From contig JASTWF010000336.1 of the NCBI GenBank assembly GCA_030390025.1, forward strand, positions 1-64,000: a stretch of 64,000 nucleotides of DNA, written 5' to 3'. The notes under the pieces were generated by a model. It did no database searches. It had not been told where the DNA came from and saw only the letters and a program-made list of their open reading frames with translations. Of the stretch, positions 27,001 through 56,547 are shown in pieces. How positions within the stretch are numbered: the stretch's first letter is position 1; every line of letters begins with the position of its first letter. The position numbers and the translations under genes are program-made. This DNA comes from Squalus acanthias (lineage: Eukaryota).

Positions 27001-30000
27001 TCCCCTCTCTCTCGAACCCAGGGATCACTGGACAGTGATCAGGAGCAGGAACCCTGGCTGATTTCCCCCTCTCTCTCTAACCCAGGGGTCACTGGACAGT
27101 GATCAGGAGCAGGAACCCTGGCTGATTTCCCCTCTCTCTCTAATCCAGGGGTCACTGGACAGTGATCAGCAGCAGGAACACTGGCTGATTTCCCCCTCTC
27201 TCTCTAAACCAGGGGTCACTGGACAGTGATCAGGAGCAGGAACCCTGGCTGATTTCCCCCTCTCTCTCTAACCCAGGGGTCACTGGACAGTGATCAGGAG
27301 CAGGAACCCTGGCTGATTTCCCCTCTCTCTCTAATCCAGGGGTCACTGGACAGTGATCAGCAGCAGGAACACTGGCTGATTTCATCCTCTCTCTCTAACC
27401 CAGGGGTCACTGGACTGTGATCAGGAGCAGGAACCTTGGCTGATTTCCCCTCTCTCTAACCCAGGGGTCACTGGACATTGATTAAAAGCAGGTACCCTGG
27501 CTGATTTCCCCTCTCTCTCTAACCCAGGGGTCACTGGACAGTGATCAGGAGCAGGAACCCTGGCTGATTTCCTCCCTCTCTCTAACCCAGGGATCACTGG
27601 ACAGTGATCAGGAGCAGGAACCCTGGCTGATTTCATCTCTCTCTAACCCAAGGATCACTGGACAGTGATCTGGAGCAGGAACCCTGGCTGATTTCCCCTC
27701 TCTCTCGAATCCAGGGGTCACTGGACAGTGATCAGGAGCAGGAACCCTGGCTGATTTCCCCTCTCTCTAACCCAGGGATCACTGGACAGTGATCAGGAGC
27801 AGGAACCCTGGCTGATTTCCCTTCTCTCTCGAACCAAGGGGTCACTGGACAGTGATCAGCAGCAGGAACACTGGCTGATTTCCCCTTCTCTCTCTAACCC
27901 AGGGGTCACTGGACAGTGATCAGGAGCAGGAACCCTGGCTGATTTCCCCCTCTCTCTCTAACCCAGGGGTCACTGGACAGTGATCAGGAGCAGGAATCCT
28001 GGCTGATTTCCCCTCTCTCTCTAACCCAGGGGTCACTGGACAGTGATCAGGAGCAGGAACCCTGGCTGATTTCCCCTCTCTCTCTACTCCAGGGGTCACT
28101 GGACAGTGATCAGCAGCAGGAACACTGGCTGATTTCCCCCTCTCTCTCTAACCCAGCGGTCACTGGACAGTAATCAGGAGCAGGAACACTGGCTGATTTC
28201 CCCTTCTCTCTCTAACCCAGGGGTCACTGGACAGTGATCAGGAGCAGGAACCCTGGCTGATTTCCCCTCTCTCTCGAACCCAGGGGTCACTGGACATTGA
28301 TTAAATGCAGGAACCCTGGCTGATTTCCCCTCTCTCTCTTACCCAGGGGTCACTGGACAGTGATCAGGCGCAGGAACCCTGGCTGATTTCCCCTCTCTCT
28401 AACCCAGGGGTCACTGGACAGTGATCAGGAGCAGGGACCCTGGCTGATTTCCTCCCTCTCTCTAACCCAGGGATCACTGGACAGTGATCAGGAGCAGGAT
28501 CCCTGGCTGAGTTCCCCCCTCTCTAACCGAGGGATCACTGGACAGTGATCAGGATCAGGAACCCTGGCTGATTTCCCCTCTCTCTCGAACCCAGGGGTCA
28601 CTGGACAGTGATCAGGAGCAGGAACACTGGCTGATTTCCACTTCTCTCTCTAACCCAGGGGTCACTGGACAGTGATCAGCAGCAGGAACACTGGTTGATT
28701 TCCCCTCTCTCTCCAGCCCAGGGATCACTGGACAGTGATCAGGAGCAGGAACCCTGGCTGATTTCCCCTCTCTCTCGAATCCAGGGGTCACTGGACAGTG
28801 ATTAGGAGCAGGAACCCTGGCAGATTTCCCCTCTCTCTCTAACCCAGGGGTCACTGGACAGTGATCAGGACCAGGAACCCTGGCTGATTTCCCACCTCTC
28901 TAACCCAGGGATCACTGGACAGTGATCAGGAGCAGGAACCCTGGCTGATTCCCTCTCTCTCTCTCTAACTCAGGGGTCACTGGTCAGTGATCAGGAGCAG
29001 GAACCCTGGCTGATTTCCCCCCTCTCTCTCTAACCCAGGGGTCACTGGACAGTGATCAGGAGCAGGAACCCTGGCTGATTTCCCCTCTCTCTAACCCAGG
29101 GGTCACTGGACAGTGATCAGGAGCAGGAACCCTGGCTGATTCCCTCTCTCTCTCTCTAACTCAGGGGTCACTGGTCAGTGATCAGGAGCAGGAACCCTGG
29201 CTGATTTCCCCCCTCTCTCGCTAACCCAGGGGTCACTGGACAGTGATCAGGAGCAGGAACCTTGGCTGATTTCCCCTCTCTCTAACCCAGGGGTCACTGG
29301 ACATTGATTAAAAGCAGGTACCCTGGCTGATTTCCCCTCTCTCTCTAACCCAGGGGTCACTGGACAGTGATCAGGAGCAGGAACCCTGGCTGATTTCCTC
29401 CCTCTCTCTAACCCAGGGATCACTGGACAGTGATCAGGAGCAGGAACCCTGGCTGATTTCATCTCTCTCTAACCCAAGGATCACTGGACAGTGATCTGGA
29501 GCAGGAACCCTGGCTGATTTCCCCTCTCTCTCGAATCCAGGGGTCACTGGACAGTGATCAGGAGCAGGAACCCTGGCTGATTTCCCCTCTCTCTAACCCA
29601 GGGATCACTGGACAGTGATCAGGAGCAGGAACCCTGGCTGATTTCCCTTCTCTCTCGAACCAAGGGGTCACTGGACAGTGATCAGCAGCAGGAACACTGG
29701 CTGATTTCCCCTTCTCTCTCTAACCCAGGGGTCACTGGACAGTGATCAGGAGCAGGAACCCTGGCTGATTTCCCCCTCTCTCTCTAACCCAGGGGTCACT
29801 GGACAGTGATCAGGAGCAGGAATCCTGGCTGATTTCCCCTCTCTCTCTAACACAGGGGTCACTGGACAGTGATCAGGAGCAGGAACCCTGGCTGATTTCC
29901 CCTCTCTCTCTACTCCAGGGGTCACTGGACAGTGATCAGGAGCAGGAACCCTGGCTGATTTCCCCTCTCTCTCTACTCCAGGGGTCACTGGACAGTGATC

Positions 30001-33000
30001 AGCAGCAGGAACACTGGCTGATTTCCCCCTCTCTCTCTAACCCAGCGGTCACTGGACAGTAATCAGGAGCAGGAACACTGGCTGATTTCCCCTTCTCTCT
30101 CTAACCCAGGGGTCACTGGACAGTGATCAGGAGCAGGAACCCTGGCTGATTTCCCCTCTCTCTCGAACCCAGGGGTCACTGGACATTGATTAAATGCAGG
30201 AACCCTGGCTGATTTCCCCTCTCTCTCTTACCCAGGGGTCACTGGACAGTGATCAGGCGCAGGAACCCTGGCTGATTTCCCCTCTCTCTAACCCAGGGGT
30301 CACTGGACAGTGATCAGGAGCAGGGACCCTGGCTGATTTCCTCCCTCTCTCTAACCCAGGGATCACTGGACAGTGATCAGGAGCAGGATCCCTGGCTGAG
30401 TTCCCCCCTCTCTAACCGAGGGATCACTGGACAGTGATCAGGATCAGGAACCCTGGCTGATTTCCCCTCTCTCTCGAACCCAGGGGTCACTGGACAGTGA
30501 TCAGGAGCAGGAACACTGGCTGATTTCCACTTCTCTCTCTAACCCAGGGTCACTGGACAGTGATCAGCAGCAGGAACACTGGTTGATTTCCCCTCTCTCT
30601 CCAGCCCAGGGATCACTGGACAGTGATCAGGAGCAGGAACCCTGGCTGATTTCCCCTCTCTCTCGAATCCAGGGGTCACTGGACAGTGATTAGGAGCAGG
30701 AACCCTGGCAGATTTCCCCTCTCTCTCTAACCCAGGGGTCACTGGACAGTGATCAGGACCAGGAACCCTGGCTGATTTCCCACCTCTCTAACCCAGGGAT
30801 CACTGGACAGTGATCAGGAGCAGGAACCCTGGCTGATTCCCTCTCTCTCTCTCTAACTCAGGGGTCACTGGTCAGTGATCAGGAGCAGGAACCCTGGCTG
30901 ATTTCCCCCCTCTCTCTCTAACCCAGGGGTCACTGGACAGTGATCAGGAGCAGGAACCCTGGCTGATTTCCCCTCTCTCTAACCCAGGGGTCACTGGACA
31001 GTGATCAGGAGCAGGAACCCTGGCTGATTCCCTCTCTCTCTCTCTAACTCAGGGGTCACTGGTCAGTGATCAGGAGCAGGAACCCTGGCTGATTTCCCCC
31101 TCTCTCTCTAACCCAGGGGTCACTGGACAGTGATCAGGGGCAGGAACCCTGGCTGATTTCCTCTCACTCTAACCCAGGGATCACTGGACAGTGATCAGGG
31201 GCAGGAACCCTGGCTGATTTCCTCCCTCTCTCTAACCCAGGGGTCACGGGACAGTGATCAGGAGCAGGAACCCTGGCTGATTTCCTCTCTCTCTAACCCA
31301 GGGGTCACTGGACAGTGATCAGGAGCAGGAACCCTGGTTGATTTCCTCCCTCTCTCTAACTCAGGGGTTACTGGACAGTGATCAGGAGCAGGAACCCTGG
31401 CTGATTTCCCCTATCTCTCGAACCCAGCGGTCACTGGACAGTAATCAGGAGCAGGAACACTGGCTGATTTCCCCTTCTCTCTCTAACCCAGGGGTCACTG
31501 GACAGTGATCAGCAGCAGGAACACTGGCTGATTTCCCCTTCTCTCTCTAACCCAGGGGTCACTGGACAGTGATCAGGAGCAGGAACCCTGGCTGATTTCC
31601 CCCTCTCTCTCTAACCCAGGGGTCACTGGACAGTGATCAGGAGCAGGAACCCTGGCTGATTTCCCCCCTCTCTTGCCCAGGGATCACTGGACAGTGATCA
31701 GGAGCAGGAACCCTGGCTGATTTCCCCTCTCTCTCGAACCCAGGGGTCACTGGACAGTGATCAGGAGCAGGAACCCTGGCTGATTTCCCCTCTCTCTCGA
31801 ACCCAGGGATCACTGGACAGTGATCAGGAGCAGGAACACTGGCTGATTTCCTCCCTCTCTCTAACCCAGGGGTCACTGGACAGTGATCAGGAGCAGGAAC
31901 CCTGGCTGATTTCCCCTCTCTCTCTAACCCAGGGGTCACTGGACAGTGATCAGGAGCAAAACACTGGCTGATTTCCCCCCCTCTCTCTCTAACCCAGGGG
32001 TCACTGGACAGTGATCAGCAGCAGGAACACTGGCTCATTTCCCCCTCTCTCTCTAACCCAGGGTTCACTGGACTCTGATCAGGAGCAGGAACCTTGGCTG
32101 ATTTCCCCTCTCTCTAACCCAGGGGTCACTGGACATTGATTAAAAGAAGGTACCCTGGCTGATTTCCCCTCTCTCTCTAACCCAGGGGTCACTGGACAGT
32201 GATCAGGAGCAGGAACCCTGGCTGATTTCCCCCCTCTCTCTAACCCAGGGATCACTGGACAGTGATCAGGAGCAGGAACCCTGGCTGAGTTCCCCCCTCT
32301 CTAACCGAGGGATCACTGGACAGTGATCAGGAGCAGGAAGCCTGGCTGATTTCATCTCTCTCTAACCCAGGGATCACTGGACAGTGATCAGGAGCAGGAA
32401 CCCTGCCTGATTTCCCTTCTCTCTCTAACCCAGGGGTCACTGGACAGTGATCAGGAGCAGGAACGATGGCTGGTTTCCTCTCTCTCTAACCCAAGGGTCA
32501 CTGGACAGTGATCAGCAGCAGGAACCCTGGCTGATTTCCCCTCTCTCTCTACTCCAGGGGTCACTGGACAGTGATCAGCAGCAGGAACCCTGGCTGATTT
32601 CCGCACTCTCTCTAACCCAGGGGTCACTGGACAGTGATCAGGAGCAGGAACCCTGGCTGATTTCCCCTCTCTCTCTAACCCAGGGGTCACTGGGCAGTGA
32701 TCAGGAGCAGGAACCCTGGCTGATTTCCCCTCTCTCTAACCCAGGGATCACTGGACAGTGATCAGGAGCAGGAACACTGGCTGATTTCCCCTCTCTCTCT
32801 AACCCAGGGGTCACTGGACAGTGATCAGGAGCAGGAACCCTGGCTGATTTCCCCTCTCTCTCTAACCCAGGGGTCACTGGACAGTGATCAGGAGCAGGAA
32901 CCCTGGCTGATTTCCCCTCTCTCTCTACCCAGGGGTCACTGGACAGTGATCAGGAGCAGGAACCCTGGCTGATTTCCCCTCTCTCTCGAACCCAGGGGTC

Positions 33001-36000
33001 ACTGGACAGTGATCAGGAGCAGGAACCCTGGCTGATTTCCCCTCTCTCTCGAACCCAGGGATCACTGGACAGTGATCAGGAGCAGGAACACTGGCTGATT
33101 TCCTCCCTCTCTCTAACCCAGGGGTCACTGGACAGTGATCAGGAGCAGGAACCCTGGCTGATTTCCCCTCTCTCTCTAACCCAGGGGTCACTGGACAGTG
33201 ATCAGGAGCAGAACACTGGCTGATTTCCCCCCTCTCTCTCTAACCCAGGGGTCACTGGACAGTGATCAGCAGCAGGAACACTGGCTCATTTCCCCTCTCT
33301 CTCTAACCCAGGGTTCACTGGACAGTGATCAGGAGCAGGAACCCTGGCTGATTTCCCCTCTCTCTAACCCAGGGGTCACTGGACATTGATTAAAAGCAGG
33401 TACCCTGGCTGATTTCCCCTCTCTCTCTAACCCAGGGGTCACTGGACAGTGATCAGGAGCAGGAACCCTGGCTGATTTCCCCCTCTCTCTAACCCAGGGG
33501 TCACTGGACAGTGATCAGGAGCAGGAACCCTGGCTGATTTCCCCCTCTCTCTAACCGAGGGATCACTGGACAGTGATCAGGAGCAGGAAGCCTGGCTGAT
33601 TTCCCTCTCTCTCTAACCCAGGGGTCACTGGACAGTGATCAGGAGCAGGAACCCTGCTGATTTCCCTCTCTCTCTAACCCAGGGGTCACTGGACAGTGAT
33701 CAGGAGCAGGAACCTGGCTGATTTCCCTCTCTCTCTAACCCAAGGGTCACTGGACAGTGATCAGCAGCAGGAACCCTGGCTGATTTCCCCTCTCTCTCTA
33801 ACCCAGGGGTCACTGGACAGTGATCAGGAGCAGGAACCCTGGCTGATTTCCGCACTCTCTCTAACCCAGGGGTCACTGGACAGTGATCAGGAGCAGGAAC
33901 CCTGGCTGATTTCCCCTCTCTCTCTAACCCAGGGGTCACTGGACAGTGATCAGGAGCAGGAACCCTGGCTGATTTCCCCTCTCTCTAACCCAGGGATCAC
34001 TGGACAGTGATCAGGAGCAGGAACCCTGGCTGATTTCCACTCTCTCTAACCCAGGGATCACTGGACAGTGATCAGGAGCAGGAACCCTGGCTGATTTCCC
34101 CTCTCTCTCGAACCCAGGGGTCACTGGACTGTGATCAGGAGCAGGAACCTTGGCTGATTTCCCCTCTCTCTCTAACCCAGGGGTCACTGGACAGTGATCA
34201 GGAGCAGGAATCCTGGCTGATTTCCCCTCTCTCTCTAACCCAGGGGTCACTGGACAGTGATCAGGAGCAGGAATCCTGGCTGATTTCCCCTCTCTCTCTA
34301 ACCCAGGGGTCACTGGACAGTGATCAGGAGCAGGAACCCTGGCTGATTTCCCCTCTCTCTCTACTCCAGGGGTCACTGGACAGTGATCAGGAGCAGGAAC
34401 CCTGGCTGATTTCCCCTCTCTCTCTACTCCAGGGGTCACTGGACAGTGATCAGCAGCAGGAACACTGGCTGATTTCCCCCTCTCTCTCTAACCCAGCGGT
34501 CACTGGACAGTAATCAGGAGCAGGAACACTGGCTGATTTCCCCTTCTCTCTCTAACCCAGGGGTCACTGGACAGTGATCAGGAGCAGGAACCCTGGCTGA
34601 TTTCCCCTCTCTCTCGAACCCAAGGGTCACTGGACATTGATTAAATGCAGGAACCCTGGCTGATTTCCCCTCTCTCTCTTACCCAGGGGTCACTGGACAG
34701 TGATCAGGCGCAGGAACCCTGGCTGATTTCCCCTCTCTCTAACCCAGGGGTCACTGGACAGTGATCAGGAGCAGGAACCCTGGCTGATTTCCCCCTCTCT
34801 CTCTAACCCAGGGGTCACTGGACAGTGATCAGGAGCAGGAACCCTGGCTGATTTCCCCTCTCTCTCTAATCCAGGGGTCACTGGACAGTGATCAGCAGCA
34901 GGAACACTGGCTGATTTCATCCTCTCTCTCTAACCCAGGGGTCACTGGACTGTGATCAGGAGCAGGAACCTTGGCTGATTTCCCCTCACTCTCGAACCCA
35001 GGGATCACTGGACAGTGATCAGGAGCAGGAACCCTGGCTGATTTCCCCCTCTCTCTCTAACCCAGGGGTCACTGGACAGTGATCAGGAGCAGGAACCCTG
35101 GCTGATTTCCCCTCTCTCTCTAATCCAGGGGTCACTGGACAGTGATCAGCAGCAGGAACACTGGCTGATTTCCCCCTCTCTCTCTAAACCAGGGGTCACT
35201 GGACAGTGATCAGGAGCAGGAACCCTGGCTGATTTCCCCCTCTCTCTCTAACCCAGGCGTCACTGGACAGTGATCAGGAGCAGGAACCCTGGCTGATTTC
35301 CCCTCTCTCTCTAATCCAGGGGTCACTGGACAGTGATCAGGAGCAGGAACACTGGCTGATTTCATCCTCTCTCTCTAACCCAGGGGTCACTGGACTGTGA
35401 TCAGGAGCAGGAACCTTGGCTGATTTCCCCTCTCTCTAACCCAGGGGTCACTGGACATTGATTAAAAGCAGGTACCCTGGCTGATTTCCCCTCTCTCTCT
35501 AACCCAGGGGTCACTGGACAGTGATCAGGAGCAGGAACCCTGGCTGATTTCCTCCCTCTCTCTAACCCAGGGATCACTGGACAGTGATCAGGAGCAGGAA
35601 CCCTGGCTGATTTCATCTCTCTCTAACCCAAGGATCACTGGACAGTGATCTGGAGCAGGAACCCTGGCTGATTTCCCCTCTCTCTCGAATCCAGGGGTCA
35701 CTGGACAGTGATCAGCAGCAGGAACACTGGCTGATTTCCCCCTCTCTCTCTAACCCAGCGGTCACTGGACAGTAATCAGGAGCAGGAACACTGGCTGATT
35801 TCCCCTTCTCTCTCTAACCCAGGGGTCACTGGACAGTGATCAGGAGCAGGAACCCTGGCTGATTTCCCCTCTCTCTCGAACCCAAGGGTCACTGGACATT
35901 GATTAAATGCAGGAACCCTGGCTGATTTCCCCTCTCTCTCTAATCCAGGGGTCACTGGACAGTGATCAGCAGCAGGAACACTGGCTGATTTCATCCTCTC

Positions 36001-39000
36001 TCTCTAACCCAGGGGTCACTGGACTGTGATCAGGAGCAGGAACCTTGGCTGATTTCCCCTCACTCTCGAACCCAGGGATCACTGGACAGTGATCAGGAGC
36101 AGGAACCCTGGCTGATTTCCCCCTCTCTCTCTAACCCAGGGGTCACTGGACAGTGATCAGGAGCAGGAACCCTGGCTGATTTCCCCTCTCTCTCTAATCC
36201 AGGGGTCACTGGACAGTGATCAGCAGCAGGAACACTGGCTGATTTCCCCCTCTCTCTCTAAACCAGGGGTCACTGGACAGTGATCAGGAGCAGGAACCCT
36301 GGCTGATTTCCCCCTCTCTCTCTAACCCAGGGGTCACTGGTCAGTGATCAGGAGCAGGAACCCTGGCTGATTTCCCCCTCTCTCTCTAACCCAGGGGTCA
36401 CTGGACAGTGATCAGGAGCAGGAACCCTGGCTGATTTCCCCTCTCTCTAACCCAGGGGTCACTGGACAGTGATCAGGAGCAGGAACCCTGGCTGATTCCC
36501 TCTCTCTCTCTCTAACTCAGGGGTCACTGGTCAGTGATCAGGAGCAGGAACCCTGGCTGATTTCCCCCCTCTCTCGCTAACCCAGGGGTCACTGGACAGT
36601 GATCAGGAGCAGGAACCTTGGCTGATTTCCCCTCTCTCTAACCCAGGGGTCACTGGACATTGATTAAAAGCAGGTACCCTGGCTGATTTCCCCTCTCTCT
36701 CTAACCCAGGGGTCACTGGACAGTGATCAGGAGCAGGAACCCTGGCTGATTTCCTCCCTCTCTCTCACCCAGGGATCACTGGACAGTGATCAGGAGCAGG
36801 AACCCTGGCTGATTTCATCTCTCTCTAACCCAGGGATCACTGGACAGTGATCTGGAGCAGGAACCCTGGCTGATTTCCCCTCTCTCTCGAATCCAGGGGT
36901 CACTGGACAGTGATCAGGAGCAGGAACCCTGGCTGATTTCCCCTCTCTCTAACCCAGGGATCACTGGACAGTGATCAGGAGCAGGAACCCTGGCTGATTT
37001 CCCTTCTCTCTCGAACCAAGGGGTCACTGGACAGTGATCAGCAGCAGGAACACTGGCTGATTTCCCCTTCTCTCTCTAACCCAGGGGTCACTGGACAGTG
37101 ATCAGGAGCAGGAACCCTGGCTGATTTCCCCTCTCTCTCTAACCCAGGGGTCACTGGACAGTGATCAGGAGCAGGAATCCTGGCTGATTTCCCCTCTCTC
37201 TCTAACCCAGGGGTCACTGGACAGTGATCAGGAGCAGGAACCCTGGCTGATTTCCCCTCTCTCTCTACTCCAGGGGTCACTGGACAGTGATCAGGAGCAG
37301 GAACCCTGGCTGATTTCCCCTCTCTCTCTACTCCAGGGGTCACTGGACAGTGATCAGCAGCAGGAACACTGGCTGATTTCCCCCTCTCTCTCTAACCCAG
37401 CGGTCACTGGACAGTGATCAGGAGCAGGAACCCTGGCTGATTTCCCCTTCTCTCTCTAACCCAGGGGTCACTGGACAGTGATCAGGGGCAGGAACCCTGG
37501 CTGATTTCCTCCCTCTCTCTAACCCAGGGGTCACGGGACAGTGATCAGGAGCAGGAATCCTGGCTGATTTCCTCTCTCTCTAACCCAGGGGTCACTGGAC
37601 AGTGATCAGGAGCAGGAACCCTGGTTGATTTCCTCCCTCTCTCTAACCCAAGGGTTACTGGACAGTGATCAGGAGCAGGAACCCTGGCTGATTTCCCCTA
37701 TCTCTCGAACCCAGTCACTGGACAGTAATCAGGAGCAGGAACACTGGCTGATTTCCCCTTCTCTCTCTAACCCAGGGGTCACTGGACAGTGATCAGCAGC
37801 AGGAACACTGGCTGATTTCCCCTTCTCTCTCTAACCCAGGGGTCACTGGACAGTGATCAGGAGCAGGAACCCTGGCTGATTTCCCCCTCTCTCTCTAACC
37901 CAGGGGTCACTGGACAGTGATCAGGAGCAGGAACCCTGGCTGATTTCCCCCCTCTCTTGCCCAGGGATCACTGGACAGTGATCAGGAGCAGGAACCCTGG
38001 CTGATTTCCCCTCTCTCTCGAACCCAGGGATCACTGGACAGTGATCAGGAGCAGGAACACTGGCTGATTTCCTCCCTCTCTCTAACCCAGGGGTCACTGG
38101 ACAGTGATCAGGAGCAGGAACCCTGGCTGATTTCCCCTCTCTCTCTTACCCAGGGGTCAGTGGACAGTGATCAGGAGCAAAACACTGGCTGATTTCCCCC
38201 CCTCTCTCTCTAACCCAGGGGTCACTGGACAGTGATCAGCAGCAGGAACACTGGCTGATTTCCCCCTCTCTCTCTAACCCAGGGTTCACTGGACTCTGAT
38301 CAGGAGCAGGAACCTTGGCTGATTTCCCCTCTCTCTAACCCAGGGGTCACTGGACATTGATTAAAAGAAGGTACCCTGGCTGATTTCCCCTCTCTCTCTA
38401 ACCCAGGGGTCACTGGACAGTGATCAGCAGCAGGAACCCTGGCTGATTTCCTCCCTCTCTCTAACCCAGGGATCACTGGACAGTGATCAGGAGCAGGAAC
38501 CCTGGCTGAGTTCCCCCCTCTCTAACCGAGGGATCACTGGACAGTGATCAGGAGCAGGAAGCCTGGCTGATTTCATCTCTCTCTAACCCAGGGATCACTG
38601 GACAGTGATCAGGAGCAGGAACCCTGGCTGATTTCCCCTCTCTCTCGACCCCAGGCGTCACTGGACAGTGATCAGGAGCAGGAACCCTGGCTGATTTCCC
38701 TTCTCTCTCTAACCCAGGGGTCACTGGACAGTGATCAGGAGCAGGAACGATGGCTGGTTTCCTCTCTCTCTAACCCAAGGGTCACTGGACAGTGATCAGC
38801 AGCAGGAACCCTGGCTGATTTCCCCTCTCTCTAACCCAGGGGTCACTGGACAGTGATCAGGAGCAGGAACCCTGGCTGATTTCATCTCTCTCTAACCCAG
38901 GGATCACTGGACAGTGATCAGGAGCAGGAACCCTGGCTGATTTCCCCTCTCTCTCGAACCCAGGGGTCACTGGACTGTGATCAGGAGCAGGAACCTTGGC

Positions 39001-41517
39001 TGATTTCCCCTCTCTCTCTAACCCAGGGGTCACTGGGCAGTGATCAGGAGCAGGAACCCTGGCTGATTTCCCCCCCTCTCTCTAACCGAAGGGTCACTGG
39101 ACAGTGATCAGCAGCAGGAACCCTGGCTGATTTCCCCTCTCTCTAACCCAGGGGTCATTGGACAGTGATCAGGAGCAGGAACCCTGGCTGATTTCCGCAC
39201 TCTCTCTAACCCAGGGGTCACTGGACAGTGATCAGGAGCAGGAACCCTGGCTGATTTCCCCTTCTCTCTAACCCAGGGGTCACTGGGCAATGATCAGGAG
39301 CAGGAGCCCTGGCTGATTTCCTCTCTCTCTAACCCAGGGGTCACTGGGCAATGATCAGGATCAGGAACCCTGGCTGATTTCCCCCCCTCTCTCTAACCCA
39401 AGGGTCACTGGACAGTGATCAGCAGCAGGAACCCTGGCTGATTTCCCCTCTCTCTAACCCAGGGGTCACTGGACAGTGATCAGGAGCAGGAACCCTGGCT
39501 GATTTCCGCACTCTCTCTAACCCAGTGGTCACTGGACAGTGATCAGGAGCAGGAACACTGGCTGATTTCATCTCTCTCTAACCCAGGGGTCACTGGACAG
39601 TGATCAGGAGCAGGAACCCTGGCTGATTTCCCCTCTCTCTTTAACCCAGGGGTCACTGGGCAGTGATCAGGAGCAGGAACCTTGGCTGATTTCCCCTCTC
39701 TCTCTAACCCAGGGGTCACTGGGCAGTGATCAGGAGCAGGAACCCTGGCTGATTTCCCCTCTCTCTCTAACCCAGGGGTCACTGGACAGTGAGCAGGAGC
39801 AGGAACGATGGCTGATTTCCCCTCTCTCTCTAACCCAGGGGTCACTGGGCAGTGATCAGGAGCAGGAACCCTGGCTGATTTCATCTCTCTCTAGCCCAGT
39901 GGTCACTGGACAGTGATCAGGAGCAGGAACCCTGTCTGATTTCCGTACTCTCTCTAACCCAGGGGTCACTGGACAGTGATCAGGAGCAGGAACCCTGGCT
40001 GATTTCCCCTCTCTCTCTAACCCAGGGGTCACTGGGCAGTGATCAGGAGCAGGAACCCTGGCTGATTTCCCCTCTCTCTAACCCAGGGATCACTGGACAG
40101 TGATCAGGAGCAGGAACCCTGGCTGATTTCATCTCTCTCTAACCCAGGGATCACTGGACAGTGATCAGGAGCAGGAACCCTGGCTGATTTCCCCTCTCTC
40201 TCGAACCCAGGGGTCACTGGACTGTGATCAGGAGCAGGAACCTTGGCTGATTTCCCCTCTCTCTCTAACCCAGGGGTCACTGGGCAGTGATCAGGAGCAG
40301 GAACCCTGGCTGATTTCCCCCCCTCTCTCTAACCAAAGGGTCACTGGACAGTGATCAGCAGCAGGAACCCTGGCTGATTTCCCCTCTCTCTAACCCAGGG
40401 GTCATTGGACAGTGATCAGGAGCAGGAACCCTGGCTGATTTCCGCACTCTCTCTAACCCAGGGGTCACTGGACAGTGATCAGGAGCAGGAACCCTGGCTG
40501 ATTTCCCCTTCTCTCTAACCCAGGGGTCACTGGGCAATGATCAGGAGCAGGAGCCCTGGCTGATTTCCTCTCTCTCTAACCCAGGGGTCACTGGGCAATG
40601 ATCAGGATCAGGAACCCTGGCTGATTTCCCCTCTCTCTAACCCAGGGGTCACTGGACAGTGATCAGGAGCAGGAACCCTGGCTGATTTCCCCCCCTCTCT
40701 CTAACCCAAGGGTCACTGGACAATGATCAGCAGCAGGAACCCTGGCTGATTTCCCCTCTCTCTAACCCAGGGGTCACTGGACAGTGATCAGGAGCAGGAA
40801 CCCTGGCTGATTTCCGCACTCTCTCTAACCCAGTGGTCACTGGACAGTGATCAGGAGCAGGAACACTGGCTGATTTCATCTCTCTCTAACCCAGGGGTCA
40901 CTGGACAGTGATCAGGAGCAGGAACCCTGGCTGATTTCCCCTCTCTCTTTAACCCAGGGGTCACTGGACAGTGATCAGGAGCAGGAACCTTGGCTGATTT
41001 CCCCTCTCTCTCTAACCCAGGGGTCACTGGGCAGTGATCAGGAGCAGGAACCCTGGCTGATTTCCCCTCTCTCTCTAACCCAGGGGTCACTGGACAGTGA
41101 GCAGGAGCAGGAACGATGGCTGATTTCCCCTCTCTCTCTAACCCAGGGGTCACTGGGCAGTGATCAGGAGCAGGAACCCTGGCTGATTTCATCTCTCTCT
41201 AGCCCAGTGGTCACTGGACAGTGATCAGGAGCAGGAACCCTGTCTGATTTCCCCTCTCTCTCTAACCCAGGGATCACTGGATCGTGATCAGGAGCAGGAA
41301 CCCTGTCTGATTTCCCCTCTCTCTAACCCAGGGGTCACTGGACAGTGATCAGGAGCAGGAACCCTGGCTGATTTCCCCTCTCTCTCTAACCCAGGGATCA
41401 CTGGATCGTGATCAGCAGCAGGAACCCTGTCTTATTTCCTCTCTCTCTCTAACCCAGGGGTCTCTGGGCAGTGATCAGGAGCAGGAACCCTGGCTGATTT
41501 CCCCCTCTCTCTAACCC
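1..41517. repeat. Satellite DNA array, ~62-63 bp monomer (CACTGGACAGTGATCAGGAGCAGGAACCCTGGCTGATTTCCCCTCTCTCTCTAACCCAGGGGT)
   Basis: Uninterrupted head-to-tail repeat from base 1 to the last CTAACCC ending at 41517. Length variation is mainly in the C, (CT)n and G runs. The array runs off the left edge of the window. Confidence 0.99.
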
Positions 41518-41578
41518 TCTCCCTCGCTCCCCTCAGTCCCCCTCCCCCTCCCGATGCGACCTCTGGTGTCTCCGCCGG

Positions 41579-42994
41579 TTACAGGACTGGGTGAAGACGC
41601 TGGTGTCTCCGCAGGTTACAGGACTGGGTGAAGCTCTTGCCACAGTGCCGGCACCGGTACGGTCTCTCACCGGTGTGCACACGGTGGTGGGACAGGAGGT
41701 TGGAGGAGTTGATGAACCCCCTCCCGCAGGAGGTACAGGTGAACGGTCTCTCCCCGGTGTGTACGTGCCGGTGCCTCAGGAGGACGGAGGAGTTGCCGAA
41801 GGATTTCCCGCAGGCCGCGCAGGTGAAAGGTCGCTCGCCGGTGTGGATCCGCCTGTGCTCCGCCAGGTTGGACGGCTGCTTGAAGGCTTTCCCGCACTCC
41901 GCGCACTCGAAGGGCCTTTCGTCCGAGTGCGAGAGGTGATGCCGCGCCAGGAAGGACAGCTGGGAGAAACGGCGCCCGCAAACTGAGCACTGGTGGGACC
42001 TCGTCACCGGGCTGGCGTCGCGCGGACTGGGAGGTCTCCTGGCACCCTCAGATACCGGCGTTCCAGACTCCGGGGGTTTCCAGGGACCCTCGAATCCCGG
42101 CGATCCACACTCGGGGGGTCCTGCGGATACCAGCGTTCCACAGTCGGGGAGTCCCTCAGATCCCAGCGTTCCACACTTGGGGAGTCCCTCAGATCCCAGC
42201 GTTCCACACTCGGGGAGTCCCTCAGATCCCGGCGATCCACACTCGGGGAGTCCCTCAGATCCCAGCGTTCCACAGTCGGGGAGTCCCTCAGATCCCGGCG
42301 ATCCACACTCGGGGAGTCCCTCAGATCCCAGCGTTCCACAGTCGGGGAGTCCTTCAGATCCCAGCGTTCCACAGTCGGGGAGTCCTTCAGATCCCAGCGT
42401 TCCACAGTCGGGGAGTCCCTCATATCCCGGAGTTACACCCTCAGGGAGTCCCTCAGATCCCAGCGTTCCACACTCGGGGAGTCCCTCAGATCCCAGCGAT
42501 CCACAGTCGGGGAGTCCCTCAGATCCCAGCGTTCCACAGTCGGGGAGTCCCTCATATCCCGGAGTTACACCCTCAGGGAGTCCCTCAGATCCCAGCGTTC
42601 CACAGTCGGGGAGTCCCTCATATCCCGGAGTTACACCCTCAGGGAGTCCCTCAGATCCCGGCGATCCACAGTCGGGGAGTCCCTCAGATCCCAGCGTTCC
42701 ACAGTCGGGGAGTCCCTCAGATCCCAGCGTTCCACACTCGGGGAGTCTCTCATATCCCGGAGTTACACACTCAGGGAGTCCCTCAGATCCCAGTGTTCCA
42801 CACTCAGGGGGCTCCGCACTGACTCCTACATCCCGCGGAGTCTGGCAGTGTCCTGGCGAGCTGCAGTAAACAGACAATCTCTGACATCTCTCGGGCAACC
42901 AATTCTCACTCGATTCCAGCACTTCCATCAATACTCTCCCTCCTCCTTCCTCCTCCTCTCCCTCGTCCTCCTTTTCCTTTCTCCTCCTCTTCAT
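41579..42994 (-). CDS. C2H2 (Kruppel-type) zinc-finger protein, 471 aa, five C-terminal fingers preceded by an 11-aa repeat region
   Basis: Open ORF with five CxxC-x12-HxxxH fingers and TGERPF/Y linkers, plus an N-terminal basic (KRRRK) and acidic tract. A splice acceptor-like TTTTCAG on the minus strand ends at 43001, 6 nt before the ATG. Confidence 0.9.
   Translation of the reverse strand: MKRRRKEKEDEGEEEEGGGRVLMEVLESSENWLPERCQRLSVYCSSPGHCQTPRDVGVSAEPPECGTLGSEGLPECVTPGYERLPECGTLGSEGLPDCGTLGSEGLPDCGSPGSEGLPEGVTPGYEGLPDCGTLGSEGLPEGVTPGYEGLPDCGTLGSEGLPDCGSLGSEGLPECGTLGSEGLPEGVTPGYEGLPDCGTLGSEGLPDCGTLGSEGLPDCGTLGSEGLPECGSPGSEGLPDCGTLGSEGLPECGSPGSEGLPECGTLGSEGLPKCGTLGSEGLPDCGTLVSAGPPECGSPGFEGPWKPPESGTPVSEGARRPPSPRDASPVTRSHQCSVCGRRFSQLSFLARHHLSHSDERPFECAECGKAFKQPSNLAEHRRIHTGERPFTCAACGKSFGNSSVLLRHRHVHTGERPFTCTSCGRGFINSSNLLSHHRVHTGERPYRCRHCGKSFTQSCNLRRHQRLHPVL
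42085..42815. repeat. 33-bp coding minisatellite (~22 copies) encoding SEGLP(D/E)CGTLG
   Basis: Unit GAGTCCCTCAGATCCCAGCGTTCCACACTCGGG repeated in frame inside the zinc-finger ORF. Confidence 0.95.
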
Positions 42995-43092
42995 TCGGCT
43001 CTGAAAATGAATGTTAAAACGGAGAGTGACTTCACTGAACTTATATTACATTATATATATTATGTTGTATCACATTATGGTATTTTATATTG

Positions 43093-45716: not shown

Positions 45717-46110
45717 TGATTATATTTTATTATTTTATATTGTATTATATTATGGTACATTATTTGATTATATTATATTATATTATATTCTGGTACATTA
45801 TTTGATTATATTATATTATATTATATTATATTATAGTCTGGTACATTATTTGATTATATTATTTTATATTACATTCTAGTATAATTTATATTATATTATA
45901 ACATTATATTATTATATATTATATTTTATATAATATTACACAGATATTATATGCTAATATATTATATTATTTTATATTGTATTATTCTTGTATAATTTAT
46001 TATATTATAACATTATTATAATATATATTTCACATTATATTATTATATTTTATATTATTATATTTCACATTGTTATATTATATTTTATATTATTATATTT
46101 CACATTTTAT
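45717..46110. repeat. AT-rich low-complexity (TTATA/ATATT)n tract; similar tracts at 43040-43092, 43457-43505 and 44706-44840
   Basis: Degenerate pentamer repeat that has been split by LINE insertions. Confidence 0.9.
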
Positions 46111-46164
46111 CACACTGAGGTATTGCACGCTGATCTCTATATGATTATTTGATGATCCTCCATT

Positions 46165-46545
46165 ACACTGGTTGTTCAGGCCGCTCTTCTCCCCACTCTC
46201 CAGGCTCAGCCTGCGGCCTCGGGCCTCGGGTTTGGCGCTGCCGCTTCTCGGCTCGCTGCGGCCGGCGGAGACTGGGCGGCGGCTCCCGGCCCCGGGGACA
46301 CCACAGTGCGCAGGCGCGGCTCCCGGGTCCCCCCCGGGGACACCAGTGCGCAGGCGCGGCTCCCGGATCCCCGGGACACCAGTGCGCAGGCGCGGCACAC
46401 CCGCTCTCCGCATAGGGCGGTTTCCCAGCCTCGGCGCAGGCTGGATAAGGAGAGCCGCCATTAAACGCCCCCTCCCACCGAACGTGGGGACCGACAGGCC
46501 AGTGCGCGTGCGCAGCGGCTCCGCCGCAACCAGCGTTGAAGGGAG
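46165..46545 (-). promoter_or_regulatory. CpG island, probable promoter/first exon of the zinc-finger gene
   Basis: GC- and CpG-rich. NRF1-type TGCGCAGGCGC at 46307, 46347 and 46383, TGCGCGTGCGCA at 46503, and YY1-type GCCGCCATT at 46454-46462. Lies ~3.2 kb upstream of the coding exon acceptor. Confidence 0.7.
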
Positions 46546-46559
46546 CTGTCAAAAAACTT

Positions 46560-46764
46560 TTGGTGATTTGTGTATTATCCGAGACCCCTTTGTTCCTCTG
46601 CCCCACCTAGACTCCCACCCTCCAAGTGATAAGTGACCTCCCTATTCTTCCTACCAAAATGTAATACCTCACATTTATCTGTGTTGAACTTCATTGGCCA
46701 ATTATTTGCCCATTCTGCAAGTTTATTAATGTCCTCCTGTAATTTGTTGCAGTCCTCCTCAGTA
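46560..46764 (-). mobile_element. CR1 LINE RT fragment
   Basis: EEDCNKLQEDINKLAEWANNW.MKFNTDKCEVLHFGRKN. Confidence 0.88.
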
Positions 46765-51053: not shown

Positions 51054-51125
51054 AGCAGAGTGGCGCAGCGGGAGCGTGCTGGGCCCATAACCCAGAGGTC
51101 GATGGATCGAAACCATCCTCTGCTA
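51054..51125 (+). tRNA. tRNA-iMet: Initiator tRNA-Met (CAT), one D-loop variant (G at 51072)
   Basis: AGCAGAGTGGCGCAGCGGGAGCGTGCTGGGCCCATAACCCAGAGGTCGATGGATCGAAACCATCCTCTGCTA: A1:U72 pair, three G:C pairs in the anticodon stem, ATCGAAA T-loop. Confidence 0.95.
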
Positions 51126-51420
51126 TTTACATTCTTATTTACAACAACGAGAAGCTTCTGTTGCTGATCACATCACACTTATTTTTTTTACACTTTACTT
51201 ACACCTGCTTGCCTGCAATAAACACAAAAACCGGCAACACAACTTTCAAATCACTTTTATTCGCACCAACAGAAGCTGCAAATGCTGCAAACACGCGGCA
51301 GCCTCGACTTTCCCCTTTCTCTCAACACAGTCCTGCAGCGCCGCCTCTCCACCACCAGATGGTGCTCTTGGCCACAGTGAAACCCTGGCACAAGGTCACA
51401 GTGAGGAGACGGACAATGAC

Positions 51421-51775
51421 ACAGAACATCTTTACACAACAGGGAAAACCTTTACACAACAGGGAACACCTTTACACAACAGGGAACACAGTTACACAAC
51501 AGGGAACACCTTTACACAACAGGGAACACATTTACACAACAGGGAACACCTTTACACAACAGGGAACACCTTTACACAACAGGGAACACCTTTACACAAC
51601 AGGGAACACATTTACACAACAGGGAACACCTTTACACAACAGGGAACACCTTTACACAACAGGGAGCAATTTTTCGCAACAAGGAACACATTTACACAAC
51701 AAGGAAGATCTTTACACAACAGGTAACTACAGGGAACATCTTTGCACAACAGAGAACATCTTTTCACAACAGGAA
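51421..51775. repeat. 20-bp minisatellite (TTTACACAACAGGGAACACC)n, ~17 copies
   Basis: Visible tandem repeat. A shorter version lies at 52555-52640. Confidence 0.95.
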
Positions 51776-52197
51776 GCTCCAACATACCAGTCTCTCTCTT
51801 CCTCTCAGTCTCCCTTTCCTGTCTGTCTGTCTCTCCCTCTGTCTCTCTCGCAGTCTCTGTCTTTCCCTCAGTCTCTGTCTCTCCCTCGTGTTACTCAGTC
51901 TGTTTCTCTCTCTCTCTCTCTCTGGTTTCCTCAGTGTCTTTCTCTGTCCCTCCCTTTGTGTGTCCTGAAAGGCCCTTGCTGGTTTTGTGTGTGTCATTCT
52001 GTGTCTGTCCCATTGTAGGTGGTGTAATACTGAGTGTCCTTGTGACATTGTGGAGCCAGGGTGAGCCTCCCAACACGTGTGTTGCTGTGTCCGGGACTTT
52101 GAGCTATTTGAGGGAAATGCTATCGCTTTCAATACAGCCTGAATTTGTCTCGCTAACACACAGCACTGACAGGCAGCTGGCGACAGAAATTACTCGC

Positions 52198-52269
52198 AGC
52201 AGAGTGGCGCAGCGGAAGCGTGCTGGGCCCATAACCCAGAGGTCGATGGATCGAAACCATCCTCTGCTA
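52198..52269 (+). tRNA. tRNA-iMet: Initiator tRNA-Met (CAT), canonical vertebrate sequence
   Basis: 72-nt match to the conserved vertebrate iMet sequence with a full cloverleaf. Confidence 0.98.
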
Positions 52270-53316
52270 TTTGCATTAATATTTACACCAACGAGAAACA
52301 TTTGTTGCTACCCACAATCACAGCGCACTTATTTTACTTACACCTGCCTGCCTGCAAATAACACAAAAACTTGCAACACAACTTTCAAATCATTTTTATT
52401 CGCACCAACATAAGTTGCAAAAGCTGCAAACACGCAGCCTCGACTTTCCCCTTTCTCTCAACACAGTCCTGCAGCGCCGCCTCTCCACCACCAGATGGTG
52501 CTCTTGACCACAGTGAAATCCCCCACAGGGTCACAGTGAGGAGACGGACAGTGACACAGAACACCTTTACACTACAGGGAACACTTTACACAACAGGGCA
52601 CATCTTTACACAACAGGGTACCTCTTTACACAACAGAAAATACCTTCATACCAGTCTCTCTCTTCCTCTCAGTCTCCGTTTCCCTGTATATCTGTCTCTC
52701 CCTCTGTCTCTCTCGCAGTCTCTCTGTCTTTCCCTCAGTCTCTGTCTCTCCCTCGTGTTATTCAGTCTGTTTCTCTCTCTCTCTCTGGTATCCTCAGTGT
52801 CTTTCTCTGTCCCTCCCTTTGTGTGTCCTAAAAGGCCCTTGCTGGTTTTGTGTGTGTCATTCTGTGTGTGTCCCATTGTGGGTGGTGTAATACTGAGTGT
52901 CCTTGTGACATTGTGCAGCCAGGGTGAGCCTCCCAACACGTGTGTCCGGAACTCTGAGCTATTTGAGTGCAATGCTAGCGCTTTCAATACAGCCTGGAGG
53001 CTGAAATTTGTCTTGCTAACACACAGCTGCATCATAGATGGACAATCAGGGATGTTGTAGGCATTTTTTAACGACCATTTTTACTATTGTTTCTGACTGT
53101 GAACTCATTCTGTGGGAGACACACGAAGTATTTTGTTAATTGTAATTGCATAGACAATGTTTTTGTTATAAAATCCTGTAGCCAGGGTGAGCCTCCCAGC
53201 ACGTGTGTTGCTGTGTGCGGGACTCTGGGTATTTGAGGGCAATGCTATCAATACAGCCTGAATTTGTCTCGCTAACACACAGCACTGACAGGCAGCTGGC
53301 GATAACCATTACTCGT

Positions 53317-53381
53317 AGCAGAGTGGCGCAGCGGAAGCGTGCTGGGCCCAGAGGTCGATGGATCGAAACCATCCTCTGCTA
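53317..53381 (+). pseudogene. tRNA-iMet copy with a 7-nt deletion removing the anticodon loop
   Basis: Identical to 52198-52269 except that CTGGGCCCATAACCCAG is reduced to CTGGGCCCAG. TTTTT at 53392-53396. Confidence 0.92.
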
Positions 53382-53466
53382 TTTACATAAATTTTTGTTA
53401 TAAAATCCTGTTGCAGGGGACCATAAATCAGTTCTGACCTACTAGGGTTATTAAAAGTACCGCTGC

Positions 53467-53538
53467 TGCGATGGCCGGGAATCGAACCCGGGTCAACTGC
53501 TTGGAAGGCAGCTATGCTCACCACTATACCACCATCGC
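53467..53538 (-). tRNA. tRNA-Gly: tRNA-Gly (TCC)
   Basis: GCGATGGTGGTATAGTGGTGAGCATAGCTGCCTTCCAAGCAGTTGACCCGGGTTCGATTCCCGGCCATCGCA, with a minus-strand TTTT terminator at 53453-53456. Confidence 0.97.
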
Positions 53539-53868
53539 TCACACGTTATACCTTTTATATTTACAGACTAACAACTTCTTTCGAATCATAAGCGGGACAA
53601 ATAAGATACTTTGAATTCATTTTAATCAGAATGCAAGCAATATGCTGAGGCACTTTCCCTCCAATTAAAAATGGCCACTGTGAATAGTTATCTCGCTTGG
53701 ACTGAGCCCTCACCCCATTTATGACTTTAAAGTCCTTTATAGTTTAAAAAAATAATTATCCACAAAAATAAATTGAAAATGTGTTTTGTAAATTTTAGAG
53801 AAATGGCATTTGCTGGAAGGCATTAAACTGCGATAGGGTGACCAAAACTGTATCAACAGGAGCCTGGC

Positions 53869-53940
53869 AGCGATGCCGCGAATCGAACCAGATTCAACTC
53901 GCTAGGAAGAGGCAGCTACTGGATAATCACCACACCATCA
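53869..53940 (-). pseudogene. Degenerate tRNA-Gly copy
   Basis: GCGATGCCGCGAATCGAACCAGATTCAACTCGCTAGGAAGAGGCAGCTA..CACCATC aligns by eye with 53467-53538, with many substitutions and indels. Confidence 0.7.
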
Positions 53941-54356
53941 TTGGTATAAGACACTAGGCTAGGCCTCAGCTAGAGTACTGCGTGCACACATTACAGGAAA
54001 GATGTGATTGCACTAGAGAGGGTACAGAGGAGATTTACAAGGATGTTGCCGGGAGTAGAGAATCTTAGCTATGAGGAAAGACTGGATAGGCTGGGTCTGT
54101 TTTCCTTGGAACAGAGGAGGCTGAGGGGAGACCTGATTGAGGTGCATAAAATTATGAGGGGCATAGATAAAGTGGATAGAAAGGGCCTATTTCCCTTAGC
54201 AGAGGGGTCAAAAACCAGGGGGCACAGATTTAAAGTAATTGGTGGAAGGTTTAAAGGGGATTTGAGGGGAAATTTCTTCACCCAGAGGGTTGTGGGGGTC
54301 TGGAACTCACTGCCTGAAAGGGTGGTAGAGGCAGGAACCCTAACCACATTTAAAAA

Positions 54357-54927
54357 TCGCCAGGCAGGATTGTTACCTCCCAGTCGGGGAACACTTCAGC
54401 AGTCAAGGACATTCAGCCTCGGATCTGCAGGTAAGCGTTCTCCAAGGTGGCCTTCGAGACACACGACAACGCAAAATCATCGAGCAGAAACTGATAGCCA
54501 AGTTCCGCACCCATGAGGACGGCCTCAACCGGGATCTTGGTTTCATGTCACGCTACATGACGTAGAGTCATCCAGACTCGAGTCGTCGTTGTCTTGTTCA
54601 CAGATGTGATTTCCAGTTTTAAAAAAAAGTAAAAAGCTTAACTGCAGACTGCAGCATTTGACACGTTGGACCCCCTGTGACCCCACCTCATTGTCTTAGC
54701 TGTATTTTGCTGTGTCTTTGATGTAATGCCTTCCTGACTGATTGTATCTCTGCCGAGGTGGTATGATGGAGGGCAGTCAGAAACACATTGTTCTCTGTCT
54801 ATATATGCTTTGTATCTGATTTGTATTCCCTCACTTTAGCTGACGAAGGAGCAGCGCTCCGAAAGCTCGTGATTTCAAATAAAACTGTTGGACTATAACC
54901 TGGTGTTGTGCGACTTCTCATTTTTGT
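54357..54927 (+). mobile_element. Penelope-like element 3' fragment (GIY-YIG C-terminus plus terminal region) with 13-bp target-site duplication
   Basis: HFSSQGHSASDLQVSVLQGGLRDTRQRKIIEQKLIAKFRTHEDGLNRDLGFMSRY. Flanked by CCACATTTAAAAA at 54344-54356 and 54928-54940. Confidence 0.85.
54831..54872 (+). ncRNA. Minimal type-I hammerhead ribozyme motif (Penelope-associated), stem I damaged
   Basis: CTGACGA (54840-46), A, stem II GGAGC-agc-GCTCC, GAAA (54861-64), palindromic AGCT, then C and GTGA. Confidence 0.7.
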
Positions 54928-55326
54928 CCACATTTAAAAAGTACTTGGATGTGTACTTGGGTTGCTGTAACCTGCAGGGCTACCGACCAAGAGCTGGGAT
55001 TAGGCTGGATAGCTCTTTGTTGGCCGGCGCGGACACGATGGGCCGAAATGGCCTCCTTCCGTGCTGTAACTTTCTATGATTCTATGAAATGTAAAACGTA
55101 AGCTTCTGTATTTACAGATCACACGCCATGGGTCTTTGGAGCTTTAGTCAGGACGAGTAAAACACTTTGCAATCATCTTAATTTGAACGTAAACAAGGTG
55201 TTCAGGTTATTTCTCTCCAATTTAAAATAGTTGCTGATGAAGGGTTATCTTGTTGCACTACTGGCTGGCGGCCAGGAGATGGCACCAAAGTCCAATAGTT
55301 TGGAGTGTGCGGATTGTGTCCACACA

Positions 55327-55472
55327 TTCAGACCGCAATGAGTCTGGAGCTGCCCGGGGAGCTGGCCAAGCACGCCGTGTCGGAAGGGACAATGCCGGTG
55401 GCCATTGCAAACAAATTTCACAACGCACTGAAAAAGCATAAAACAAAGCAACGGCTCTTTTGAGAGGAAAGC
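55327..55472 (+). pseudogene. Histone H2B 3' fragment with decayed stem-loop
   Basis: [22 protein letters not shown] followed by AACGGCTCTTTTGAGAGG. No recognisable 5' half. Confidence 0.85.
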
Positions 55473-55548
55473 ACAGCATTAATTTAATCGAATTATTCAT
55501 TCCGACCATCGTCCTTTTTATAGAATCACAGAACGATTCAGTATTTCA

Positions 55549-55927: not shown

Positions 55928-55943
55928 CTAAAAATCCCAGTCA

Positions 55944-56183
<240 letters not shown>

Positions 56184-56547
56184 TCACTCAAATTGTCGCT
56201 GAATGAGAATCTCTCGCCTTACAGCTTTATTTAAAGAGCCTGAGCGGACCTGGCTGAGAAAAGCAGACTGTGCGTGAGGCGGACGGGAGGGAATTTGAAT
56301 GAGAGACAGAGCAGAGAGCGGGAAGGGAGGAGACAGATCCAGAGTGAAAGAGAGAAAGGGCTCTGAGCTTCCAGCAACCTCTCCAAGTTGAAGTTACAAT
56401 CCTCTTTAAAATCTTCACCAAACTTCACACAAATTCAGATAAATCCTGATATTCAAGGATTGATATTCAGCGATTTCTAGAAAAGCAATAGCCGGACAAT
56501 ATAATTAAAATTCATTAAATGTGTCCCGCTGCACTTCAAATCTATTA

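Follow-up and report, generated by a model that had tools for sequence, protein, structure and literature searches.

How does a gene form the 3' end of its transcript when its open frame stops just short of a large satellite? This question is raised by a window of 64,000 nucleotides (the whole stretch of DNA that was analysed), in which a five-finger C2H2 coding exon on the minus strand points toward a tandem array of 63-bp units (Table 1). The positions proposed by the first-pass annotation for the stop codon (41579-41581), the satellite edge (41517) and the 61-bp gap between them are all borne out, given that the frame starting at 43045 ends with a TAA codon at 41579-41581 and that TRF assigns positions 1-41517 to the array. 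The explanation we tentatively favour is that the gene is an ordinary one and that its short 3' UTR would end near position 41410, inside an array probably derived from a SINE, which is a neighbour of the gene and not a target of its protein.

Table 1. Features of the zinc-finger gene, the gap and the adjoining satellite, in window coordinates.
Feature	Position	Strand	Remarks
Tandem array, 63-bp unit	1-41517	.	TRF: period 63, 666.9 copies, 94% matches
AATAAG	41431-41436	minus	On the gene's strand, no other poly(A)-type hexamer occurs in the array
Array edge, possible 5' splice site AGG/GTTAGA	41510-41518	minus	GT at 41515-41514; unscored
G-quadruplex-type G-run motif	41515-41552	minus	No other on this strand within 1-43100
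Unique gap, stop to array	41518-41578	minus	61 bp
37-bp tandem duplication	41563-41636	minus	End of finger 5
Coding exon	41579-42994	minus	471 aa from first ATG; acidic N-terminus, ~22 in-frame 11-aa repeats, five C2H2 fingers
33-bp coding minisatellite	42087-42810	minus	TRF, 21.9 copies
Splice-acceptor-like site	43002-43025	minus	Pyrimidine tract plus AG, close upstream of the ATG
CpG island	46100-46600	minus	Three NRF1-like motifs and one YY1-like motif (from general knowledge of these motifs)

The five fingers in the open frame exhibit the C-x2-C-x12-H-x3-H spacing and TGEKP-type linkers that are characteristic of Kruppel-type C2H2 proteins. Comparison of the 471-aa frame with Pfam yielded seven matches, all to finger families and including PF13465 (E 3.8e-32) and PF00096 (E 9e-27) above the cut-off; KRAB, SCAN, BTB and SET domains are absent among them, in a frame that comprises the coding exon only. 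The acceptor-like site near the ATG suggests that an upstream exon precedes the coding exon, and the CpG island is a candidate promoter whose assignment to this gene is putative. The present stop codon was created by the 37-bp duplication in finger 5, the second copy of which, in its own frame, would terminate at a TGA (41533-41535) located 15 bp from the array.

A protein search with the finger region returned 7916 generic matches, and no orthologue is present in the best 120 of these, which are mostly ~40-58% identical; an orthologue with five fingers could be placed lower in the ranking. Likewise, no orthologue was recognized among 72 candidates retrieved with the N-terminal 70 aa or among 28 retrieved with the pre-finger linker, and a HMMER search against 1.84 billion representatives produced three weak matches, of which the two examined resemble unrelated repeat proteins. 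These blank searches do not establish the gene as unique. We would describe it as a putatively lineage-restricted, ordinary C2H2 gene on the margin of a cluster of tRNA and histone genes.

Contigs from sequencing runs were used to assess whether the gene is transcribed. The contigs examined cover 41370-42085 and come from 4 of 14 runs, three of which we guess to be RNA (X6, X7 and X8) and one of which is DNA. Exon contigs are present in all three presumed RNA runs at a depth of 3.5-4.2 and may reflect expression. The X7 contig (41738-42011) and the X8 contig (41731-42039) show no differences from the exon, and the X6 contig (41581-41957), from a run with a second organism label, shows two. Weak transcription of the zinc-finger gene is, in our judgement, quite probable. 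The X6 contig ends at 41581, beside the stop codon, and this end was not taken as that of a transcript because it belongs to one low-depth contig.

On the minus strand, 33 of the 61 nucleotides of the gap that follows the stop codon are G and 3 are T. The gap resembles the monomer no more than expected by chance, given that an equal score is reached by 69% of shuffles. It had been proposed that transcription yields G-rich satellite RNA, which overstates the case: the minus strand of the array contains 31% G versus 25% C, and the G-rich part is the gap. Rfam revealed no match at the junction in a search of 40000-64000, and folding of the putative 3' UTR is no better than that of shuffles (z -0.58). 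The junction falls within a GA-rich tract.

The earlier claim that neither the gap nor the consensus monomer carries AATAAA or ATTAAA on the gene's strand is confirmed and holds over the full 41.5 kb (1-41580), and the adjoining unique 22.5 kb contains 26 such hexamers on the same strand. Of the 19 poly(A)-type hexamers tested (a list compiled from general knowledge), 18 are absent from 1-41580 and AATAAG, to which the earlier annotation had also pointed, occurs once. This scarcity is unsurprising, because a gap with three T is followed by a homogeneous monomer that lacks such hexamers. Provided that the junction is genuine and that the gene is expressed, Pol II must enter the array, because the gap itself lacks a signal.

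The single AATAAG is a private substitution (AATCAG to AATAAG) in the complete monomer that lies closest to the gene. Of all 189 single changes that the monomer could undergo, only one yields a listed hexamer, and it is seen once in 666 monomers, as one of three substitution types that are limited to the last five monomers. We estimate the coincidence, judged post hoc, at roughly 2-5%. AAUAAG is a recognised minor poly(A) signal, for which the hexamer-cleavage spacing is 20-22 nt (PMC4971764). The hexamer at this locus is likewise a one-letter variant, and differs in that it lies inside a satellite monomer. With that spacing, cleavage would be expected near 41410, at a site that would be weak because the sequence beyond it contains 16% T and the closest UGUA is ~145 nt upstream of the hexamer. 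Termination can be aided by G-rich pause sites (PMC4351672), and the G-run is a candidate pause element; it is located just after the stop codon as such an element might be, but upstream of the hexamer, and no U-rich downstream element is evident.

Thus, Pol II would pass the stop codon and then the G-run before entering the array, and the mature RNA would most likely end behind the AATAAG, ~110 nt into the array, with a predicted 3' UTR of ~170 nt that includes ~1.7 monomers. A 3' UTR with one to two monomers is our best guess. A more elaborate history, in which a SINE-derived satellite overran or replaced the original 3' end and the AATCAG to AATAAG change rescued the gene by providing an end for its mRNA after ~1.7 monomers, seems unlikely; if true, a satellite unit would have been exapted as a transcript end.

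The absence of AATAAA and ATTAAA and the poor context of the AATAAG might also indicate that, as in the model of the first-pass annotation, Pol II reads far into the array without a usable signal; the product would be either a long 3' UTR made of monomers or satellite RNA that is not processed. Monomer-to-monomer tandem joints are indeed found in the presumed RNA contigs, but these are not assignable to this locus. Depth summed over the monomer core amounts to ~5,000-25,000 times the exon depth, although such depth is a poor measure, and full read-through of 667 units would explain roughly 3% (X7, X8) to 14% (X6) of it. We consider long read-through doubtful.

Equally hard to favour is an arrangement wherein the array is intronic, such that the transcript is spliced from 41515 to a last exon with its poly(A) signal more than 41 kb away. 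The edge of the array has a donor-like GT, and a pyrimidine-rich, acceptor-like CAG is present in each monomer. However, such a GT is expected, because GGTTAG recurs in most monomers (553 GGGTTAG), and a donor 63 nt past the stop codon would expose the mRNA to nonsense-mediated decay, for which a 50-55 nt rule is established. No joint from 41515 appears in the contigs, but coverage is absent there.

This lack of coverage also bears on whether the junction exists. No contig from the four runs bridges 41517/41518, and depth is zero at 41538-41561 in RNA-type and DNA runs alike. A mis-join in the assembly, or a recent rearrangement that removed the real 3' end of the gene, would account for the lack of a bridging DNA contig, for the GA-rich setting of the join with no element flank kept and for scattered one-base losses in the distal 12 kb of the array, which resemble uncorrected read errors. 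However, the DNA run was read to ~55% only and its coverage of the unique exon is likewise interrupted, and therefore the blank at the junction says little. Furthermore, the error-like losses drop to zero near the junction, and the edge monomers carry private variants, as at a natural border. Substitutions are denser in the 17 kb of the array nearest the gene, and higher-order periods of ~1.25, 1.31, 1.7, 1.83 and 1.89 kb are evident; an edge that is clean, diverged and of higher-order structure is consistent with a natural border of the array. A faulty or recently rearranged junction is thus quite unlikely in our view.

Given the proximity of gene and satellite, it had been speculated that the five-finger protein binds the array and that the two form a self-contained regulator/target pair. 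This is very improbable. Satellite-localising zinc-finger arrays are known, including PRDM15 on HSat3 and, as cited there, ZNF512/512B (PMC11526998), and these cases resemble ours in that a C2H2 array and a satellite occur in the same genome. However, that work assayed binding, whereas the interaction considered here is speculative, and ZNF512 has long linkers whereas the five fingers here are canonically linked. Proximity, which is all that the locus itself contributes, predicts nothing because the protein acts in trans. Copies of the unit adjoin many further loci as well, which means that the pair would not be self-contained. When the finger contacts (QSFR, QSNE, NSVR, NSNS and QCNR) were scored against the monomer with a crude recognition code taken from general knowledge, 7 of 10 positions matched, a level that 38% of 2000 shuffles reach and that is consistent with chance. 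The lack of KRAB, SCAN, BTB and SET among the Pfam matches argues in the same direction. The larger proposal, in which a gene drives satellite RNA that is read by a zinc-finger protein, would be of greater consequence for the biology of heterochromatin, and nothing here supports it.

Genes are known to adjoin macrosatellites or satellites elsewhere, as exemplified by DUX4 with its pLAM poly(A) signal and by the beta-satellite/KRAB-ZNF cassettes of human 19p12. In these systems, as here, the end of a Pol II gene abuts tandem repeats; in contrast, the gene described here has no KRAB and lies outside the repeat unit, and its transcript end is predicted only. If our preferred reading is true, the locus offers a test case for how a 3' end is maintained by a gene whose flank has been occupied by a tandem array.

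The origin of the 63-bp unit is suggested by contigs that hold the monomer as a single piece within many differing flanks that have motifs in common. Of the 24 loose-end rows listed (from 187), 16 have median loose lengths of 71-255 nt, and those built from multiple contigs agree at only 0.43-0.63, which indicates many different flanks. By eye, a CAATT/AAATT motif marks the point at which 4 of the 13 right-side rows listed pick up again, 8-9 letters beyond the G-run, and two of these four, from runs X6 and X7, read GGCCAATTGTA. On the left side, 4 of the 10 rows listed carry a CCAGCAGGGG-like motif, as judged by eye from consensus strings. Contig sequence that continues unlike the stretch makes up only 1-2% of the total aligned, and most monomer depth may therefore come from tandem and not from dispersed copies. 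A putative resemblance links the monomer and both flank motifs to the middle portion of an AmnSINE2-like, tRNA-derived SINE.

From these features, the 63-bp unit has the appearance of an internal piece from a dispersed element, as in reptile satellites, and its parent is probably a SINE; the 3' flank of the gene would accordingly have been taken up by a large array of this internal piece. No copy of the parent element was found in the unique 22.5 kb of the window, and the element motif was not found in two supplement files of PMC4824008. Monomer patterns gave no matches in metagenomes, and in viral contigs gave none and then two, both covering only the 17-20 letters and attributable to chance. 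A search of the open-access literature found nothing on this 63-bp repeat or on a shark gene that reads into a satellite. A telomeric or interstitial telomeric repeat was also considered and rejected, because TTAGGG is absent from the minus strand of the array and GGGTTAG occurs singly in each unit.

The closest parallel is provided by the SINE-derived satellites sSat1-3 of squamates (Vassetzky, Kosushkin and Ryskov 2023, PMC10702118). With 666.9 copies, our array has far more than the at least four middle units, arranged head to tail, that define such satellites, and it extends past the start of the window, which implies at least 667 units. As with sSats, which reach up to 1000 units per locus, the array comprises hundreds of units, the unit is apparently shorter than, and internal to, a dispersed element, and homogeneity is higher in long loci. 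The unit is 63 bp here versus ~70-290 nt in sSats, and the host is apparently shark-type, whereas the word shark is absent from PMC10702118. Most sSats keep an extended end of the element on one side, whereas no SINE-like flank is present in the 61-bp gap and none is kept on the gene side of the array, the far end of which lies outside the window; an extended terminus is, however, usual rather than obligatory for SINE-derived satellites (PMC10702118). If our preferred reading is true, such satellites extend beyond squamates, a point left open by the authors in their discussion. With regard to its formation, an initial duplication of the unit between two short CAGGGG repeats belonging to the element, followed by amplification, is likely.

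The end of the zinc-finger gene lies as the first-pass annotation placed it. A TAA codon at 41579-41581 closes the minus-strand frame, the 63-bp array fills 1-41517 (666.9 copies, 94% matches), the gap between them measures 61 bp, and the gene's strand lacks a canonical poly(A) signal throughout 1-41580. In all, 18 of the 19 poly(A)-type hexamers tested are missing from that strand, and AATAAG occurs a single time, at 41431-41436, also as annotated. Absence of hexamers is the default expectation, because the gap is T-poor and the monomer homogeneous. That the gene ends beside an array is a real observation, but probably nothing unusual in this genome. Shark genomes are described as having more simple tandem repeats on short chromosomes (bioRxiv 10.1101/2022.10.17.512540). 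The expectation of a G-rich satellite RNA is overstated, given that RNA from the array would have a G content of 31% and a C content of 25%. Strong G-richness is confined to the gap (33 of 61 letters), which holds the sole G-quadruplex-type motif on the minus strand of 1-43100.

Provided that the gene is transcribed and the junction genuine, RNA polymerase II would enter the array. Because AAUAAG is among signals that peak 20-22 nt ahead of cleavage sites (PMC4971764), the RNA would be predicted to end near 41410, behind the lone AATAAG, with a 3' UTR some 170 nt long, and we tentatively favour this end. Among the 189 possible single-base changes of the monomer, just one, AATCAG to AATAAG, creates a hexamer from the tested set. 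The 666 monomers show this change a single time, in the first complete monomer past the gene. It is one of three substitution types restricted to the last five monomers, and the chance of such a coincidence is about 2-5% in a post hoc test. G-rich pause sites participate in termination (PMC4351672). The AATAAG context is poor, with 16% T downstream and the closest UGUA about 145 nt upstream. It is doubtful that a satellite monomer was co-opted to provide the gene with its poly(A) site, and splicing from a donor-like site at the array edge also seems unlikely.

A mis-join or rearrangement at the junction seems improbable. Substitutions per monomer amount to about 2.2 in the 17 kb adjoining the gene versus 0.04-0.7 farther out, edge monomers carry private variants, and error-like one-base losses are limited to the distal 12-18 kb; such features would suit a natural array border. 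Scattered one-base losses and G4-to-G3 shortening, noted within 1-18000, become fewer closer to the gene, from 28 against 31 over the first 4 kb to 0 against 16 at the array edge. Their source is read error in the distal assembly or else a genuine subarray. The array is layered: the part at 24000-41517, near the gene, has higher-order periods of 1.25-1.89 kb, whereas the core, at 12-18 kb, is almost uniform. A variant monomer with plus-strand ATTAAA, present in 14 copies at 21500-38400, could serve as a poly(A) signal for transcripts heading to the gene.

Parts of the exon are present in 14 public runs, none recorded as RNA, and contigs of four were compared with 41370-42085: three guessed to be RNA (X6-X8) and one DNA run (X5). 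Exon contigs occur in the three guessed-RNA runs at a depth of 3.5-4.2. Those of X7 (41738-42011) and X8 (41731-42039) show no differences from the exon, and that of X6 (41581-41957), a run with a second organism label, shows two. The latter extends into the second copy of a 37-bp duplication, which is therefore not peculiar to this assembly. The small size of the guessed-RNA runs (110-161 million letters versus 1828-4546 million in five main DNA runs) fits transcriptomes, but is no proof. No contig in the four runs bridges the junction, and 41538-41561 has zero depth in every one of them, including the DNA run, of which about 55% was examined and which has holes across the exon too.

Two smaller points merit follow-up, namely the single AATAAG at the edge of the array and the probable SINE origin of the 63-bp unit. 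Contigs fitting only in part number 387 of 1596 (X5), 55 of 252 (X7), 51 of 168 (X8) and 36 of 114 (X6). Among the loose-end rows listed (24 of 187), 16 have a median loose length of 71-255 nt, and in the 15 of these that contain several contigs agreement is 0.43-0.63. The unit thus adjoins many different sequences. By eye, in noisy consensus strings, CAATT or AAATT lies 8-9 letters past the G-run in 4 of the 13 right-side rows listed, reading GGCCAATTGTA in X6 and X7, and a CCAGCAGGGG-like motif replaces the array's previous monomer in 4 of the 10 left-side rows listed. Read together, these suggest that the unit spans CAGGGG to the next CAGGGG within a longer dispersed element, the anatomy expected from microhomology-driven tandem duplication. 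Counting against a dispersed element, only 1-2% of compared contig material continues unlike the stretch.

No full parent element was obtained from the window, metagenome and viral pattern searches or article supplements; as a lead only, it may resemble AmnSINE2. The array behaves like squamate SINE-derived satellites (PMC10702118), in which part of the interior of a dispersed element has been multiplied into hundreds of units, although its membership among them is tentative because the SINE nature of the parent is only putative. The text examined from PMC5499810 and PMC4824008 holds no consensus for comparison, and we found no description of the 63-bp repeat in the open-access literature.

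Long read-through into the array is a further, rather unlikely fate of the transcript. Guessed-RNA contigs contain monomer-to-monomer tandem joints, and one such joint, in X8 record 31, is linked to some 400 letters of other sequence. Over the monomer core, summed depth is roughly 5,000-25,000 times exon depth, although such depth is a poor measure, and complete read-through would supply some 3-14% of it, so RNA with the monomer sequence seems to originate mainly outside this array.

Binding of the five-finger protein to its neighbouring satellite, a speculation of the first-pass annotation, is highly improbable. Finger proteins that localise to satellites are known (PMC11526998), but a protein acts in trans, so proximity predicts nothing. 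The contact residues (QSFR, QSNE, NSVR, NSNS, QCNR) were converted by a finger code into a 15-letter pattern with 10 specified positions; in this crude test it fits the monomer at 7 of the 10, which 38% of 2000 shuffles equal, a result that lends binding no support but does not refute it. The 471-aa frame, read from the first ATG (42994), opens with an acidic segment, followed by about 22 repeats of 11 aa in frame and then by five C2H2 fingers; a Pfam search of it returned finger families only, with no effector domain. Sequence searches, which for the finger region covered the best 120 of 7916 hits, found no orthologue.

Coordinates of repeats and neighbouring features
Feature	Position	Remarks
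37-bp tandem duplication	41563-41636	end of finger 5
33-bp minisatellite	42087-42810	about 22 copies, in frame within coding exon
36-bp tandem repeat	46279-46396	inside CpG island; three NRF1-like motifs
Two tRNA-Met genes in duplicated cassettes, tRNA-Gly	within 51054-59364	
H2A- and H2B-like frames with stem-loops	within 51054-59364	
H4-like frame	55941-56183	breaks off early
Second, older tandem array, 46 bp	60430-61947	68-79% matches

The 11-aa repeat (Gly/Ser/Glu/Pro) encoded by the minisatellite makes up about half of the protein. The 37-bp duplication creates the current stop, and the frame of its second copy would stop 15 bp short of the array. The duplication alters the C-terminus and retains the second histidine of the last finger; the downstream copy has Arg where the finger has Leu. 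The neighbourhood holds three tRNA genes and two histone stem-loops, beside frames presumed to be H2A, H2B, a partial H4 and LINE pieces; the repeats suggest a cartilaginous-fish genome. An acceptor-like site lies upstream of the ATG, and the candidate promoter is a CpG island, located at about 46100-46600, that has NRF1-like and YY1-like motifs.
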